Below are positions 1,714 through 60,547 of a stretch of DNA of 64,000 nucleotides, in pieces. A program made the position numbers and the translations under genes. The notes below the pieces were generated by a model that ran no database searches, was not told the origin of the DNA, and saw nothing but the letters and a program-made list of their open reading frames with translations. Position 1 is the stretch's first letter, and every line of letters starts with the position of its first letter. This DNA is from Gammaproteobacteria bacterium UBA3067 (lineage in GTDB: Bacteria; Pseudomonadota; Gammaproteobacteria; Pseudomonadales; UBA3067), in contig DFBZ01000060.1 of NCBI GenBank assembly GCA_002366835.1, positions 83,011 to 147,010 on the forward strand. Direction: 5' to 3'.

Positions 1714-1992
1714 CCCAGCACACTCCTTCTAACAAGCAGAACAAAGCCGCCAAGTGTAAACATAAGAGCCATCCAGTAAAAGAGGCCAATGACATTTAAG
1801 ACCCCGAACAAGACGCTTCCAAATCAATACCTTGCAAACCTTGTCTGTTATTTTTGTCATGCTCCAGATAATAAAAGGCCGACCCGCTCACATATAATTT
1901 TTTACAAATCGCTATGCTAAACAGCTGCGCCATAAACTAACATTAAAACTATCGAGGGCTAGCGAGCCCACTTTGTCCTTTTATCTTTCCAC

Positions 1993-2139
1993 CTAGCAGG
2001 CTGTTAAAATTCGCTGAGTTGAGCCAGATACAAGGAAAAATTAAGCGAAAAAGCGGAGTTTACACCTGTAAATGAGCACTTTGAGCGCGATTTTTACGCT
2101 GTAGATGGCCAAGTCAGTAGAATTTCAACAACCTGCTAG
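1993..2139. repeat. Structured intergenic repeat, copy A (147 bp, MITE/ERIC-like, no ORF)
   Basis: Outer arms are CTAGCAGGCTGTTAAAATTC and GAATTTCAACAACCTGCTAG (18/20 complementary). Imperfect pairing extends to about 39 bp per arm. About 90% identical to copy B at 51018-51186. Confidence 0.85.
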
Positions 2140-3052
2140 AAACCAAATACAACAAATACACTCATACAAATCAACTGCGGACCCCCTATCAGTGAGCTCA
2201 AGTGAACTATTAACCGCCAACAAGCTAGTCGAAAGAATAGACATCCCCTCCCAACCCGAACTACTTATATCTATAAACTTAGAGGCGCAAAAGGAGCGTT
2301 GTAATTTTGATCTAGTGGCTGAAATGATCAGCAATGACATTAGTATCGCTTCCGAAGTACTGAAAACGGTTAACAGCCCGCTCTTTGGCTTACGCAAAAG
2401 TGTCACGTCCATTCAGCAGGCGGTTGGCCTGATGGGCTTACACCGGGTTATCGGACTGGTTAGAAATGTCTCTCTGAGGAAGAGCGTTAGCAAGGGCCTG
2501 AATCTCGAATCCTTCTGGCAGTCTGCTACGAAGAATGCCCAAACCTGTGCGCTAATTGCAAAAAAAACAAATCTTATTGATGCCGAAGAGGCCTACACCT
2601 TCGGCCTGTTTCACGATGCAGGCATCCCCATCCTGATGCAAAACTATTCCGACTATCAAAGCAGCCTAAAAGACGCATCAATGCAGTCAGGCTTAGAAGG
2701 CACCAAAGCAGAGGACACTATTTACAAAGTGAATCACGCCACTGTTGGCTACTACTTGTGTGACAAATGGTTTCTACCCGAGCATATCTGTAAAGCCGTG
2801 TATTACCATCACCGTAGCCATTTCATGTTCAATAAAACAAAAGCTTACGACAGCCCATTCATTATTTTATTGTCGTTACTGGTAACATCTCAGCATATTA
2901 TTGGCGCGAAGAGTCAAGTCGAAGCTGAGAGGGAATACCCAAACCTATGGAATGAAATGCAATTCCCGTTACAGGAAATATTTAAGCTTGATGAAGAAGC
3001 GTACAGCGCCCTTATCGCCGACATTAACGAACAGCTAGAAGCCACGAATTGA
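2105..3052 (+). CDS. HDOD-domain signalling protein (start uncertain)
   Basis: HDOD-type N-terminal region: LPSQPELLISINLEAQKE...DLVAEMISNDISIASEVLKTVNSPLFGLRKSVTSIQQAVGLMGL, then FGLFHDAGIPIL. The first 12 codons lie inside repeat copy A, so the ORF-track ATG at 2105 may not be the real start. Confidence 0.7.
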   Translation: MAKSVEFQQPARNQIQQIHSYKSTADPLSVSSSELLTANKLVERIDIPSQPELLISINLEAQKERCNFDLVAEMISNDISIASEVLKTVNSPLFGLRKSVTSIQQAVGLMGLHRVIGLVRNVSLRKSVSKGLNLESFWQSATKNAQTCALIAKKTNLIDAEEAYTFGLFHDAGIPILMQNYSDYQSSLKDASMQSGLEGTKAEDTIYKVNHATVGYYLCDKWFLPEHICKAVYYHHRSHFMFNKTKAYDSPFIILLSLLVTSQHIIGAKSQVEAEREYPNLWNEMQFPLQEIFKLDEEAYSALIADINEQLEATN

Positions 3053-3077: not shown

Positions 3078-3280
3078 ATCGACGAAGGGGGGCTTACTAA
3101 GCTTGTGAGCTCCTCTACTACCATTCCCAACGCCTACCGCCGAGGCATTATTTCCAGCAAAACAGCCCCTTCAGAACATATCACCACAAGCCAAATCTCA
3201 TGTTACTGTCGCGCGCGATTCAATGTTTCATCAAATTTATTAGCGGAGGAATTTCCCATAAACGGCACCCATCATCCATA

Positions 3281-3352
3281 ATCCTAGAAACCGCAGTTGA
3301 AGTACAAAATTCTGTACAAGCTCTTGCCGCACCCAACTGAGGCTTCTAGGAT
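3281..3352. repeat. Structured intergenic repeat, copy F (72 bp), same TIR family as 60248-60414
   Basis: Arms are ATCCTAGAAACCGCAGTTGA and CCAACTGAGGCTTCTAGGAT (17/20 complementary). The right arm's reverse complement matches the left arm of copy E at 18/20 positions. Lies upstream of asnS. Confidence 0.6.
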
Positions 3353-3394
3353 AATCACTGTCAGTTGCTTAATAACAAAATATGGATGAACGCC

Positions 3395-4795: not shown

Positions 4796-4873
4796 AGAGA
4801 ATGAAGACAAAGCGGTGAGCAAACGCGATTCCCGCTTTATTTTACAAAAAATCGAAACGATTCAGCGAGCTCT

Positions 4874-4994
4874 GTAACTATTCATATCGCGCTCAAATTT
4901 GCGCAGAACAAGGCGAAAGATGTGAGTTTATAAGTATAAATGATCATTTTTTAACACAATTATGTGCAAATTTGAGCGCGATATGAATAGTTAC
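4874..4994. repeat. Structured intergenic repeat, copy C (121 bp, 32-bp arms)
   Basis: Arms are GTAACTATTCATATCGCGCTCAAATTTGCGCA and TGTGCAAATTTGAGCGCGATATGAATAGTTAC (31/32 complementary). Lies between convergent asnS and the NlpC/P60 gene. The central 57 nt carries the core shared with copies A, B and E. Confidence 0.8.
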
Positions 4995-5000
4995 AAAAGA

Positions 5001-5510: not shown

Positions 5511-5746
5511 TTAGAAATTATTTCATCCATCTTGTGTTGCCCTGTGCTGAGGCTAGAAATACTTACTCATAAACGAGTATAACAGCCCCCCTTTTGGGCA
5601 CCTCAATACCCTCAGCTATCGCAAGGAAAGCAGCGCTCTACTAAACCCATGACAGCATTCCATGCTATCGCCTTTTTCCGAAACACCCGTTAGAATGATC
5701 AACGCTGCAACAGTTACCCACCTCTAAAAAATGTAAGGAGAACACC

Positions 5747-37805: not shown

Positions 37806-37947
37806 AGGGCACCTCTAAAAATTGCCTTTTTACCCGATAGCGGCGTCAGTTCCATACTCAACTCCTCATGTAGCCCTTGTACACTGAGGGTTTCCGTGCG
37901 GTGCTTCCTTGCTCTCGAATAAAAGATCTAATTTTTAGAGATGCCCT
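37806..37947. repeat. Structured intergenic repeat, copy D (142 bp, 18-bp arms)
   Basis: Arms are AGGGCACCTCTAAAAATT and AATTTTTAGAGATGCCCT (17/18 complementary), separated by 106 bp. Fills the gap between convergent genes. Confidence 0.6.
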
Positions 37948-43947: not shown

Positions 43948-47975
<4,028 letters not shown>

Positions 47976-48116: not shown

Positions 48117-50978
48117 ATGCAAGCACATGTTCAGCCCCCCACACCACAACACTTAAGCTATTCCCCCCGCTCACTCCAGCTCCGTCTTTTTATTTTTTTA
48201 GCGTTACTGCCTTGTCTGCTGCACCCAACAAATAGCCATGCAATTGATCCACGACTAGACTGGTTTAGCTTAGCAACGCCGCATTTTATTATTCACTTCC
48301 CTGAAGAAAACGAGGCGCTTGCTGAGCTTATTGCCGAAAGAGCCGAGAGCGCCCACAAAGAACTCTCCCCCTGGTTTAATTGGCAGCCAAAAGAAAAAAC
48401 CCACATCGTCCTTAATACGAGTGAAAGCCGAGCAAACGGTTCCGCTTTCGCCATCCCTTATAATCGCATCGAACTAAACATGGTCATTCCCGAAGCAGGA
48501 GGCAACCTGTCAGACTTTGCTGATTGGTGGACACTGCTAATCACCCATGAGTACGCACACATCCTCCACCTAGATAAAAAAGTGGGAGTTCCTCTTTTCC
48601 TGCGCCAAACCCTTGGCCGTGTTCCAGCATTTTATCCCAACCTGTTTCAACCTCGCTGGATTATTGAAGGCCTCGCCACCTATATTGAAACCGATAATGA
48701 AAATCAAACCGGCCGCGGCCAAAGCAGCGCCTTCAATATGATGATCAACGAAGAACTCGGCCAGGGTTTAAAATCACTGCGCCAAATCAACATTCATGAA
48801 AGCAACTGGCCCTACAGCAGCGCCTACCTGTATGGCAGCTATTTTTTTGAATTTCTTGAACAGGAATATGGTGAAGAAAAAACCAAAGCCTTTATTGCTG
48901 AATACAGCAACAACATCATCCCCTTCGCACTGAATACCACCAGCAGCACTGTTTTTGACAAATCTCTTTACAGCTTGTGGAAAGACTATGAACACTATTT
49001 AAAAACCAATATCGCCATCCCCGCCTTAGCTGGAGACAAACAACAGGCGCTTACCGAAAAAGGATACCTACAAGGCCCATTACAAAGCGACAATGACAGG
49101 GCGCTATTATTTATTCAAAACAATGGTGAACGTCACACAGCACTATGGAAAATAAACCAACAGGGAGACAAAGAGAAAATAACAGAACTGCAATCAGGTG
49201 CATCCTTCGACTTCCACAAGCGCGGTGGTTTCATCATCAGCCAAGCGGAAGTCTGCGAAGAATATAACGTATATTATGACCTCTTTATTCTCACCAAGAA
49301 CGACACTACTCCACAACAAATTACGCACTGCGCACAATACCACTACGCCAGCTGGCACCCATCGGGAAATAAAATTGCAGCCATAAAGGTAAACCCTTTA
49401 TACAGCCAAATCGACCTACTTAAAAAAGATGGCTCCTTCATAAAGACCCTCTGGAAAAGCAATAAAAACGAGCGCCTCAGTGCTTTAGACTGGAATCAAG
49501 ATGGCAGCAAAATAATCACCTCTTTACATAAAACTAATACTGGATGGAACCTTTATGAGCTAGATACTAACAAAGGCTCTATGCGCAGCCTGACAAATGA
49601 CTGGGCGGAAAAGTCTGCGCCACGGTACCAGAAAAATGGGCACATCATCTATTCCGCCGATTACGATGGCGTGAGTAATATCTATAAAATAAATTCGACA
49701 AGCGGAAAGGTTTTAAAACTTAGCCAGGGAAATAAAGGCAAATTCCACCCCCTATTGACTGAAAAAAACGAAACGTCACACCTAAGCTATATGCAATATG
49801 GCCCCACAGGCCTCAACATATACCAACAAAAAGAAATCATCGCTAATGCCTACACCGTTAAACCTGATTTACGGATAACAGAAAATAAAAAGGCAACAGA
49901 AAAAGTTACGCCATATTCACCAGCAAACACAGCACAGGGCTACTCCCCATGGCCATCTTTAATCGCACCCAGCTGGATACCGAATTTTTTTGTTTCCAGT
50001 GATCAAAGTTTTATTGGAGCGATACTTATGGGTGCCGATGCACTGCAAAACCATAAGTACGAAATCTCCCTCGCCTACGAGGCGCAATATGAACAGCTCT
50101 ACAGCAATATAAACTATCAATACAATGACCGCCTATTTATCAACTATGAACATGATAAGCGTTATTTTTTCTCACAGGAAAGGCTCGACTTCATTCTCAA
50201 CACAGACCAGATCGAAGCTTACTACCTCGTCCCAAGTTCAACACTGGAAGCACAATGGAATATTCTGCTCGGTGGCGAGTTTATTTATAATTCATGGGAT
50301 CAATTCTCACCTTTTTTTATTAAGCCGGATTCATCACGAAGCCAGCTACTTGGCGTTGCTGTTTTATACAACAGTAGCCACCGCTATTTACGAGGTATTA
50401 GCGATACTGAAGGGCGACAAGTTTATGTGGCGGCGGAAAATATCCGTCTATTTGACAATAATATCCGTGGCGATAGCCTGACATTTGACTGGCGCGAATA
50501 TATCCCCCTTAGCGACGCTCACACTCTTGCGTTGCGTGGCGTCCATGCCCGAAGCTCCTCACCCAGTGTTCGCTATTTTCTTGGCGATGATTTCAGCGAT
50601 CCTTTCAATAATATCGGCAACATATTCAATCGCCAAGATTACCCCTTAAGGGGATACGATCAGTCTCTCGAAAAACTCAGCGGGAATCGCTTATTCCTAG
50701 GCAGTGCCGAGTGGCGCTTCCCCATTACCAATATCGAACGCACACTTATGTCTCCTCCGGTGGGAATACAAAAAGTACATGGCAAGCTGTTTATAGAATC
50801 TGGCGCAGCCTGGACAGCGGGTATCAATGAGAGGGAGTTCTACAGCAGCAGGGGCGTCGAACTAATCGCTGAAGCAAGATTATTTTATTACTACCCCGTT
50901 AATCTGCGCTTGGGTTACGCAAAAACAGAAGAAAAAGACGGGGATAACTTTTATGGCAGTCTTGGGGTATCCTTCTAA
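48117..50978 (+). CDS. Predicted outer-membrane protein: HExxH metalloprotease-like region, TolB-like beta-propeller and Omp85-type barrel
   Basis: Signal peptide ...PTNSHA/ID. THEYAHILH with a downstream IIEGLATYIE. WD40-like/TolB repeats (SWHPSGNKIAAIK, DWNQDGSKIITS, YSADYDGVSNIYKIN). DYPLRGYD, an Omp85 L6-like (V/L)RG(F/Y) motif. C-terminal ...GSLGVSF. The ORF opens at TTG 48084. Confidence 0.6.
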   Translation: MQAHVQPPTPQHLSYSPRSLQLRLFIFLALLPCLLHPTNSHAIDPRLDWFSLATPHFIIHFPEENEALAELIAERAESAHKELSPWFNWQPKEKTHIVLNTSESRANGSAFAIPYNRIELNMVIPEAGGNLSDFADWWTLLITHEYAHILHLDKKVGVPLFLRQTLGRVPAFYPNLFQPRWIIEGLATYIETDNENQTGRGQSSAFNMMINEELGQGLKSLRQINIHESNWPYSSAYLYGSYFFEFLEQEYGEEKTKAFIAEYSNNIIPFALNTTSSTVFDKSLYSLWKDYEHYLKTNIAIPALAGDKQQALTEKGYLQGPLQSDNDRALLFIQNNGERHTALWKINQQGDKEKITELQSGASFDFHKRGGFIISQAEVCEEYNVYYDLFILTKNDTTPQQITHCAQYHYASWHPSGNKIAAIKVNPLYSQIDLLKKDGSFIKTLWKSNKNERLSALDWNQDGSKIITSLHKTNTGWNLYELDTNKGSMRSLTNDWAEKSAPRYQKNGHIIYSADYDGVSNIYKINSTSGKVLKLSQGNKGKFHPLLTEKNETSHLSYMQYGPTGLNIYQQKEIIANAYTVKPDLRITENKKATEKVTPYSPANTAQGYSPWPSLIAPSWIPNFFVSSDQSFIGAILMGADALQNHKYEISLAYEAQYEQLYSNINYQYNDRLFINYEHDKRYFFSQERLDFILNTDQIEAYYLVPSSTLEAQWNILLGGEFIYNSWDQFSPFFIKPDSSRSQLLGVAVLYNSSHRYLRGISDTEGRQVYVAAENIRLFDNNIRGDSLTFDWREYIPLSDAHTLALRGVHARSSSPSVRYFLGDDFSDPFNNIGNIFNRQDYPLRGYDQSLEKLSGNRLFLGSAEWRFPITNIERTLMSPPVGIQKVHGKLFIESGAAWTAGINEREFYSSRGVELIAEARLFYYYPVNLRLGYAKTEEKDGDNFYGSLGVSF

Positions 50979-51017: not shown

Positions 51018-51186
51018 CTAGCAGGCTGTTGAAATTCGCTGAATTGAGTCAGATATAAGGCAAAATCAAGCGAAAAAGCGGAGTTTACACGTGTAAATGA
51101 GTACTTTGAGTGCGATTTTACCGAGAGTAGGCGCCTTAAGCGACGCAGTAGATGGCCAAGTCAGTAGAATTTCAACAGCCTGCTAG
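51018..51186. repeat. Structured intergenic repeat, copy B (169 bp)
   Basis: Perfect 20-bp arms CTAGCAGGCTGTTGAAATTC and GAATTTCAACAGCCTGCTAG. About 90% identical to copy A, plus a ~22-nt internal insertion (CGAGAGTAGGCGCCTTAAGCGA). Confidence 0.85.
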
Positions 51187-51220
51187 AAAAGCCCTGTGGT
51201 TTATTAATAGAGGAAACAAA

Positions 51221-51913
51221 ATGCTTAACTGGCAAGACATTGATACCGTATTACTGGATATGGATGGCACCCTGCTGGATTTGCACTTTGACAACTATTT
51301 CTGGCTTCAGTACCTGCCTGAAAAATATGCCTCGACACAAAACATTTCACTGGATGACAGCAAAGAAGCGCTGCGGCAACGCTACCAGAGCCAAAGTGGC
51401 AAACTGAATTGGTACTGCCTTGATTTTTGGGGCAAGGAGCTGGCATTAGATATTCTGGAGCTAAAACGAGACATTCGCCACTTGATCGCGTTCCGGCCCC
51501 ATACCGAACACTTTCTGAAGCACTTAGAGGCCAACAATAAAAAGCGCATTTTACTCACTAATGCACACCCAGATAGCCTGCAGCTCAAGCTCGAACACAC
51601 CCAGCTGCATGAATATCTGGACGTCATACATAGCAGTCATCACTTCAACAAACCCAAAGAAGACCAGCAATTCTGGCCAGCTTTCCTAAAAAAAGAACAC
51701 CTGGATATTTCCCGCACGCTGCTTATCGATGACAGCATCGCGGTACTGGATAACGCCCGCGAATTTGGCTTTCAACACCTCCTTACAATAGGCCAACCGG
51801 ATAGCCAGCAAGCGCCAAAATCCAACGAAAATTATAAAACCATTCACTGTTTTACCCATATCACGCCAAACACTGGAGATAGCCTGCCTGTCCAGAAGCC
51901 AGCATCCCAATGA
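51221..51913 (+). CDS. yrfG: HAD-family GMP/IMP nucleotidase
   Basis: From MLNWQDIDTVLLDMDGTLLDLHFDNYFW... to RILLTNAHP and LLIDDS, collinear with E. coli YrfG as I remember it. The ORF-track start at 51152 lies inside repeat copy B and is rejected. Confidence 0.75.
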   Translation: MLNWQDIDTVLLDMDGTLLDLHFDNYFWLQYLPEKYASTQNISLDDSKEALRQRYQSQSGKLNWYCLDFWGKELALDILELKRDIRHLIAFRPHTEHFLKHLEANNKKRILLTNAHPDSLQLKLEHTQLHEYLDVIHSSHHFNKPKEDQQFWPAFLKKEHLDISRTLLIDDSIAVLDNAREFGFQHLLTIGQPDSQQAPKSNENYKTIHCFTHITPNTGDSLPVQKPASQ

Positions 51914-60207: not shown

Positions 60208-60247
60208 ATCTATCCTCCAGCTAGCACCCCGCCCCAAACAAACCTTA

Positions 60248-60414
60248 AACCTAGAAACCTCAGTTGGGCGCGAAAAAGATGTGCAAGATATTGGCGTGAA
60301 TAGGGAATTTTAAAAATTCGTGTTCACCTTATTGGTGATGAGAACTTTTTAAAATTTTCTAGATGCGTCAAGGGCTTGTACAGACTTTCGTGATCCAACT
60401 GAGGTTTTTAGGTT
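60248..60414. repeat. Structured intergenic repeat, copy E (167 bp, 20-bp arms)
   Basis: Arms are AACCTAGAAACCTCAGTTGG and CCAACTGAGGTTTTTAGGTT (19/20 complementary). The arms are related to copies F and G. The interior carries the GCGAAAAAGATGTG... core shared with A, B and C. Lies in the divergent fliL-like/dsbB promoter region. Confidence 0.7.
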
Positions 60415-60547
60415 AAACCTAGCGGGATAATGAACTGTAAGCATAGTTACAATTACAGAATCCTTCCTTACACTTCGTCCCTTAGAAAGCTTGTCACCGA
60501 GTTAAAATTATCTTAATGTCATTATTGATGTTAGATGAGGATTAAAA

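Follow-up and report, generated by a model that had tools for sequence, protein, structure and literature searches.

Two intergenic palindromes of a gammaproteobacterial contig as probable MITEs of an ISButh5-type insertion sequence

What are two closely similar palindromes, neither of which encodes anything, doing 49 kb apart in the same 64,000 nucleotides of gammaproteobacterial DNA, and how did they come to be there? That whole 64-kb stretch is called the window here. The original prediction placed the palindromes at 1993–2139 (copy A) and 51018–51186 (copy B) and described them as about 90% identical. Both are present at those positions, both are intergenic, and their identity comes to 87% as a mean over the alignment columns. 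Copy A measures 147 bp including the CTAG at either end (a 139-bp element plus 2 × 4 bp), and copy B measures 169 bp counted in the same way (161 bp plus 2 × 4 bp). The two lie in the same orientation, on the + strand. The main difference between them is that copy B carries a 22-bp internal insertion relative to copy A and to the 147-bp consensus (51120–51141, +), which interrupts the right side of the central core in both the pairwise and the CM alignments. Neither copy has coding capacity of its own, and the only ORFs are read-through artefacts that start at an ATG in the right arm.

Each copy folds on either strand into one long hairpin, with −59.7 kcal/mol and z = −7.4 for copy A and −68.4 kcal/mol and z = −8.0 for copy B; over both strands, the z-scores range from −6.7 to −10. 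The arms had been described as pairing for about 39 bp per side. The pairing is real, but that limit is not, since base pairing spans the entire element. Searched at 0–1 mismatches, the window contains four occurrences of the 20-nt terminus, namely both ends of each copy; the chance expectation is 0 in 100 dinucleotide shuffles. A fifth terminus-like match at 45789–45808 has 3 mismatches, falls within a 972-aa ORF and lacks a partner, and it was discarded as chance.

An alternative foreseen in the original prediction was that the copies belong to a larger duplication, so that they would be remnants of segmental duplication or recombination and not insertions. That there are only two copies in the window, in the same orientation, would suit such an origin. 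However, the match between them runs exactly from the left CTAG to the right CTAG, with unrelated sequence beyond; therefore, the pair is not a segmental duplication. Two further observations go against it, namely a precise empty site with a single CTAG at copy B and the hundreds of related copies in unrelated genomes. This explanation is already refuted, and the probability that we leave to it is close to nil.

The CTAGs themselves are at 1993–1996 and 2136–2139 in copy A and at 51018–51021 and 51183–51186 in copy B. They had been counted into the inverted repeat, with the statement that no clear target-site duplication was visible. That statement was wrong: the terminal CTAGs are the duplicated 4-bp YTAR target and not part of the inverted repeat. 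The duplication was missed because a CTAG target is a palindrome. The empty site for copy B is found in a contig from another metagenome (L121), which has the same two flanking genes with near-identical flanks. There, the spacer is 77 bp and contains a single CTAG (AAGCTTTTCTG-CTAG-AAAAGCC). At the same place in the window, 161 bp stand between two CTAGs, making it 165 bp longer. This occupied/empty polymorphism shows an insertion or a precise loss since the divergence of the two strains.

Duplication of 4 bp and duplication of TA leave the same sequence when the target is CTAG, and the 4-bp reading rests on relatives whose flanks are not palindromic. ISButh5, the closest named relative discussed below, is flanked directly by CTAA/CTAA, and an element on a Thiolapillus plasmid by TTAG/TTAG. 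In Microbulbifer, MITEs whose left end is the same show direct CTAA/CTAA flanks twice and TTAG/TTAG once. A sample anchored on the core, and so unbiased for ends, gave TTAA/TTAA twice, TTAG/TTAG once and CTAG/CTAG once versus three imperfect pairs. The Halomonas and Pseudomonas veronii copies have TTAA on each side. The flanks of several full-length elements from a CTAG-biased scan differ at one position. Since the flanks of the relatives are direct and not inverted, the tetranucleotide is target DNA, and the true ends begin CAGG. The IS5-type group behaves in this way, duplicating 4 bp at a YTAR target.

For copy A, the two duplications are assigned by analogy with the empty site of copy B and with the direct YTAR flanks of the relatives. 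No empty site for copy A was found; the only other contig that has the upstream gene (L122) stops 30 bp short of the element. That contig ends at window position 1962, at GGGCTAG, before copy A and not inside it. A small GC hairpin at window 1956–1969, where L122 ends, scored as terminator-like.

Inside the CTAGs, copy A has its left terminal inverted repeat at 1997–2012 (+, CAGGCTGTTAAAATTC) and its right one at 2120–2135 (−; GAATTTCAACAACCTG on the + strand). In copy B, the left repeat is at 51022–51037 (+, CAGGCTGTTGAAATTC), and the right one, located by the terminus match and the inverted repeat search, is at 51167–51182 (−); these two ends are 100% complementary (inverted repeat I2). The 16-bp ends CAGGCTGTTGAAATTC, contained in the 20-nt terminus, are identical to those of IS5-family insertion sequences of 1.27–1.5 kb, and the element closes with their reverse complement. 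A scan for the exact 20-mer terminus in one genome per species found at least 114 genome loci in many phyla. Among the matches listed, the spacing of paired ends falls into two size classes, 91–201 bp and 1270–1518 bp. The long class has a single ORF of 362–374 aa, which scores 264–268 bits on NCBIfam IS5_4 (NF033581; cut-off 140) and has DUF772 and DDE_Tnp_1 domains. By tblastn, the transposase is in 27 of the examined loci, including the reference elements L118 and L119, and about 20 of the matches are full-length. Its closest named relative among annotated plasmids, at 63% amino-acid identity, is ISButh5 (so named by PGAP), which has the ends CAGGCTGTTGAAAT.

IS5-family ends without any gene make a MITE by definition. 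We are therefore confident that copies A and B are MITEs of an ISButh5-type IS5-family element, and thus another case of a known kind of element. The MITE part of the original MITE, ERIC or Correia-type proposal is borne out by the ends, the 4-bp duplication and the signs of multicopy status. The absence of a transposase from the window was also correctly called as far as the cognate IS5-family enzyme is concerned, with tblastn finding no homologue of it in the 64 kb. Presumably, a DDE transposase from a full-length element with the same ends, either elsewhere in the genome or formerly there, cuts and pastes the MITE in trans. Insertion is at a YTAR tetranucleotide, in this case CTAG, and leaves a copy of it on each side. 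Because the window lacks the cognate transposase, we infer the mobilization in trans, and likewise which transposase moves the MITE in the source organism; mobility in this host is attested only by the empty-site polymorphism. A simpler origin was considered, in which the MITE is an internal-deletion derivative of one of the sampled insertion sequences. Beyond the ~20-bp ends, the similarity of the MITE interior to the subterminal regions of the sampled full-length elements is only at background level, and CM R1, the covariance model that recognizes the core of the MITE, finds no core inside the full-length loci. Therefore, the MITE is not a simple internal deletion of any sampled insertion sequence, and this origin was rejected.

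The elements appear to be multicopy in their host genome. In three independent assemblies of the same organism (L116, L117 and L120), the contigs break within the right arm. Multicopy repeats interrupt short-read assemblies, and the element thus explains contig breaks in assemblies of the source organism. A third copy, 90% identical to copy A, is on another contig (L223) of the metagenome that also carries copy B. The copies most like those of the window, at 86–91% identity, are in Proteobacteria bacterium UBA2770, in Gammaproteobacteria bacterium 50_400_T64 and on metagenome contigs. The G+C content of the source organism is about 47%.

The two insertions have different surroundings. Copy A is between a divergent pair, consisting of a gene at 862–1713 (−) with alpha/beta-hydrolase Pfam matches and an ORF ending at 3052 (+), which may encode an HDOD-domain protein. 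Copy B is between a 964-aa ORF (+), which stops at 50978, and a HAD hydrolase gene (+) with its start at 51221, so that the element begins 40 bp past a stop codon and ends 34 bp ahead of a start codon. Scans found no sigma-70-like promoter and no intrinsic-terminator-like site inside either copy. The right-arm ATG of both copies opens a frame (MAKSVEFQQPAR; window 2105–2140 and 51152–51187) that continues, with no stop codon, into the gene downstream, giving ORFs at 2105–3052 and 51152–51913. On related contigs, gene callers start the HAD gene at the later ATG at 51221. No record was found of the 315-aa product that would start at 2105, inside the MITE. The only other in-frame start seen for the gene downstream of copy A is a GTG at ~2192 with no obvious ribosome-binding site, and from the reading frame, copy A might therefore supply or alter the start of that gene. 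Copy B, judging by the gene arrangement, is probably cotranscribed with the HAD/Hsp15 genes. By analogy with ERIC and Correia, for which effects on processing or stability have been reported (PMC10969869), its hairpin could affect the processing or stability of that transcript. Copy B is the site of a recent insertion polymorphism, immediately upstream of the HAD-hydrolase/Hsp15/Hsp33 gene cluster.

The relationship between ends and interiors is modular, and it is so in both directions. The same ends are found with at least four unrelated interiors. The 147-bp interior class of the window is shared by MAGs labelled Thiotrichaceae and Ca. Thiodiazotropha, by a Ca. Endoriftia persephone assembly and by further genomes, most of them gammaproteobacterial. 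Other interiors with the same ends are of ~170 bp in Microbulbifer, 120 bp in Cellvibrio and 158 bp in Alphaproteobacteria. The core detected by CM R1 is in 21 of 100 terminus-sharing loci; none of these is a full-length insertion sequence, and none belongs to the other three interior classes. In the window, CM R1 scores copy A at 78.7 bits and copy B at 68.3 bits. The core of copy A occupies 2017–2113 (+), is a full-length match to the model and reads in order CAAGG. / stem / GA / stem / GCGGAG / TTTAC / 4-nt loop / GTAAA / TGAGCA / stem / GA / stem /.ACGC.

In the other direction, the core is found on many different ends. A metagenome scan by the element centre, AGCGSAGTTTAC-N4-GTAAATGAG (20 specified bases), returned at least 120 loci. 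Among the matches listed, only 6 of the 107 copies with enough flank carry the window terminus at 3 or fewer mismatches. The remaining copies have other inverted-repeat ends, mostly adjoining CTAG, TTAA or TTAG, of which GAGGCTGTCCGAGAA, GGGAACCTCTAAAAAC, GGAACCTCTCATTAAG, GAGATTTCAGCATAAC, GGGTGCCTCCGG, TAGAGTCTGTCTATAGAGTC and GGAGCCTCTGATTAAC are examples. Altogether, a hairpin core of ~75 bp is carried by elements with at least ten different ends.

Some of the metagenome elements have further peculiarities. Four of them (L163, L167, L180 and L208) have an extra GC-rich hairpin insert of ~40–60 bp (...TCGTTTCACTCGCCCTTCGGGCC...) right after GTAAATGAGCATTAC, which looks like a second small element nested at a fixed point of the core. 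The 22-bp insert of copy B is at a different position from these. In L195, L213 and L231, core elements of the TAGAGTCTGTCTATAGAGTC class come in groups of two or three that lie head to tail or overlap, all within a few hundred bases.

Beyond the 20 bases required by the search, conservation in the core extends to a left-hand CAAGGC, a right-hand AACGC, a GA/GA mismatch pair, and GC / GCA. Between them, the stems vary by family in a compensatory manner. In 45 distinct elements with a named structure, 90% of cells pair, compared to no more than 48% when the partners are slid. In the variable helix, 12 of 16 pairs have changed on both sides. Compensatory cells number 131, as opposed to 44 ± 6 in shuffles, and none of 500 shuffles reached 131, although in a palindromic transposon such covariation could be produced by repair templated by the other arm and not by selection alone. 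No strand preference was seen; G-U versus A-C pairs number 14 to 9, which is uninformative. We infer that selection maintains the conserved central hairpin. Our best guess for its role is that it helps bring the ends of a very short element together, or that it allows harmless persistence as an RNA or DNA hairpin at gene ends.

A rival reading is that these elements are primarily host-selected structured RNAs or cis-regulatory hairpins (an sRNA, a terminator or attenuator, or an mRNA-stabilizing 3' hairpin), with the transposon-like ends being incidental. The conserved unpaired nucleotides between covarying stems speak for this. So does the positional bias of the core elements, which are commoner downstream of genes: by counts made with a crude home-made ORF caller, 107 flanking genes read into the element versus 65 that read away from it, and 22 contexts are convergent versus 6 divergent. 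The location of copy B inside a co-directional gene pair, close to both genes, also fits. However, the same counts show no orientation bias of the elements relative to the flanking genes (52 forward versus 55 reverse for incoming genes; 37 versus 28 for outgoing genes). Neither is there an excess of G-U over A-C pairs, nor a promoter-like or terminator-like site within the elements, nor a match in Rfam at either the gathering threshold or E ≤ 10. Copy B is missing from an otherwise near-identical strain and is therefore dispensable, and elements that do carry a transposase have identical ends. On balance, we consider it unlikely that host-selected RNA or regulatory function is the primary nature of these elements.

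A second rival takes the hairpin as what a transposase recognizes. In this proposal, the elements would be REPIN-like and moved by a single-strand transposase of the HUH/RAYT or IS200/IS605 type that reads the hairpin and not the ends. It would accommodate the observations that the whole element forms a hairpin on both strands, that the core is conserved while the ends change, and that the interior is unrelated to IS5-type elements. It does not accommodate the 4-bp direct duplications, a typical product of staggered DDE cuts that HUH transposases do not make, or the identity of the 16-bp ends to those of DDE IS5-family elements. No RAYT/IS200-type gene was noticed beside the copies in a casual, unsystematic look. 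We regard hairpin-directed movement of this type as very improbable. Membership in the REP/REPIN class proper was also considered and rejected, that class having paired short REP hairpins, a linked RAYT gene and no target duplication as opposed to the long DDE-type ends and 4-bp duplication of the window elements.

With the copies taken as IS5-family MITEs, they are routine genome furniture, and what matters more widely is their modular make-up, in which one set of ends goes with several interiors and one core with many ends. We tentatively entertain a stronger version of that point, which we consider possible but less likely than not. It is that the ~75-bp core is an independently conserved, exchangeable module in which invariant loops (CAAGGC / AACGC; the GA/GA tandem mismatch; GSAG / TGA with a bulged A) are set between covarying stems. 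The core is mounted on ten or more unrelated termini of IS5-like type, in metagenomes from a wide range of environments as well as in Halomonas and Pseudomonas from culture, and is distantly shared with ERIC. If true, ERIC-type elements would be part of a large, previously unrecognized superfamily that swaps ends to exploit different IS5-family transposases, and the core itself would be under selection for a role in the propagation or persistence of MITEs. Within an incomplete coverage of the literature, no published description of the core sequence or of a MITE superfamily sharing it was found.

Two further palindromes in the window are also recognized by CM R1. In a run without filters, the scores following copies A and B and these two drop to 15.1 bits, for a match inside yet another palindrome, and then to 10.2 bits. 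The first of the two, at 4873–4995 (+), is intergenic and 123 bp long, with 36-nt arms (TGTAACTATTCATATCGCGCTCAAATTTGCGCAGAA) that are 94% complementary (inverted repeat I1); it scores 31.9 bits (E 3e-5) and has a hairpin z of −12.6. It has a shortened ERIC-like version of the core (CAAGGCGAAAGATGTGAGTTTATAAGTATAAATGATCATTTTTTAACAC), and its ends bear no relation to those of copies A and B. The second, at 37806–37947 (−), is intergenic and 142 bp long, with a diverged core that scores 26.3 bits (E 7e-4) and a hairpin z of −5.4. It has a third kind of ends, AGGGCACCTCTAAAAATT (inverted repeat I6), which resemble the metagenome classes GGGAACCTCTAAAAAC and GGGCATCTCCGAAAAT. No relative of it was found in the plasmid collection. 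A further family of palindromes, at ~60240–60425 and 3278–3355, has the terminus CCTAGAAACC(T/G)CAGTTG in common. Its long copy, at ~60240–60425, is 89% identical over 119 nt to 5604–5721 of a Gammaproteobacteria bacterium 50_400_T64 contig (L033) and reaches only 15.1 bits with CM R1. In total, the 64-kb window contains at least six MITE-like palindromes with at least four terminus classes.

How do these elements compare to known systems? The original prediction could not match them to a known family, and there is none in Rfam: over the whole window, nothing reaches the gathering threshold, and E ≤ 10 adds only a chance match to mir-351. The nearest autonomous elements are ISButh5 and its unnamed relatives, members of the IS5-type group of the IS5 family that are ~1.3 kb long. 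They have the same 14–16-bp ends (CAGGCTGTTGAAAT..) and the same 4-bp YTAR duplication as the MITE. They differ in encoding a transposase of ~360 aa and in being without a MITE-like interior and without the core hairpin. The nearest counterpart in kind is MITEPsy1 of Pseudomonas syringae, an IS5-type MITE that targets CTAG/YTAA with a 4-nt duplication and was trapped transposing (PMC3189936). Like the window elements, it is short and non-coding; it has the ends of the IS5-family ISPsy2 and is mobilized in trans. It differs in being 100 nt long with different ends, GGAAGGTCTGAAAAAGCC, and in that its transposition is experimental, as compared to only an empty site for the window element.

The Correia element (CREE or nemis) of Neisseria is a palindromic intergenic MITE of 105–155 bp with a directional core, and its mobilizing transposase was never identified (PMC2649163). 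By eye, it shares GACAAGGC..GCCGCAG..GTAC and ..GAGGCAACGC with the window element (sequences from the supplement of PMC2649163), and it differs in its ends (TATAGYGGATTA..) and in having a TA duplication. A Correia copy in a 40-kb N. gonorrhoeae stretch scores 10.9 bits with CM R1 (E 1.6), which is background. With CM R1 at background and nhmmer finding nothing, no kinship to Correia is claimed, and that part of the original proposal is not supported. No Correia copy was found in the phage collection. Two PLSDB "plasmids" of 2.17 Mb from Neisseria gonorrhoeae (NZ_CP119140.1 and NZ_CP119142.1) are evidently chromosomes and have at least 40 Correia copies each.

This leaves ERIC (IRU or RU-1 of Enterobacteriaceae and Vibrionaceae), which, at 127 bp, is an intergenic palindromic MITE of a size similar to the window copies. 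We know of no transposase for it. A genuine E. coli ERIC scores 25 bits with CM R1 (E 6.5e-5 in 3 kb), and the match is centred on the element; the best background scores in the window and in 40 kb of Neisseria are 10–12 bits, or 15.1 bits if the match inside another window palindrome is counted. A sequence-only profile of the core, run with nhmmer, matched none of ERIC, SeRU-1, YPAL and Correia. Since nhmmer is blind to ERIC, the link is a distant one that rests on structure and a few motifs. The ERIC consensus reads CAAGGC / stem / GGAG / CTTAC / ATAA / GTAAG / TGA / stem / AACGCAGC (PMC2759123), and its skeleton in common with the core of the window elements is CAAGGC / stem / GGAG / YTTAC / 4-nt loop / GTAAR / TGA / stem / AACGCAG. 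The window elements differ in having an extra segment of helix (GA / AAAAGC ... GCATTTT / GA), and the palindrome at 4873–4995 is closer to the ERIC layout than copies A and B. The ends also differ: ERIC ends in TATACCC.. and has a reported TA duplication, as opposed to CAGGCTGTTGAAATTC and the 4-bp YTAR duplication of the window copies. The model match thus suggests a distant relationship to ERIC at the level of the central hairpin only, and to that extent the ERIC part of the original proposal survives. A family with an ERIC-like core and the ends of a known, clonable transposase offers an experimentally tractable model for how such elements move and for what their hairpin does.
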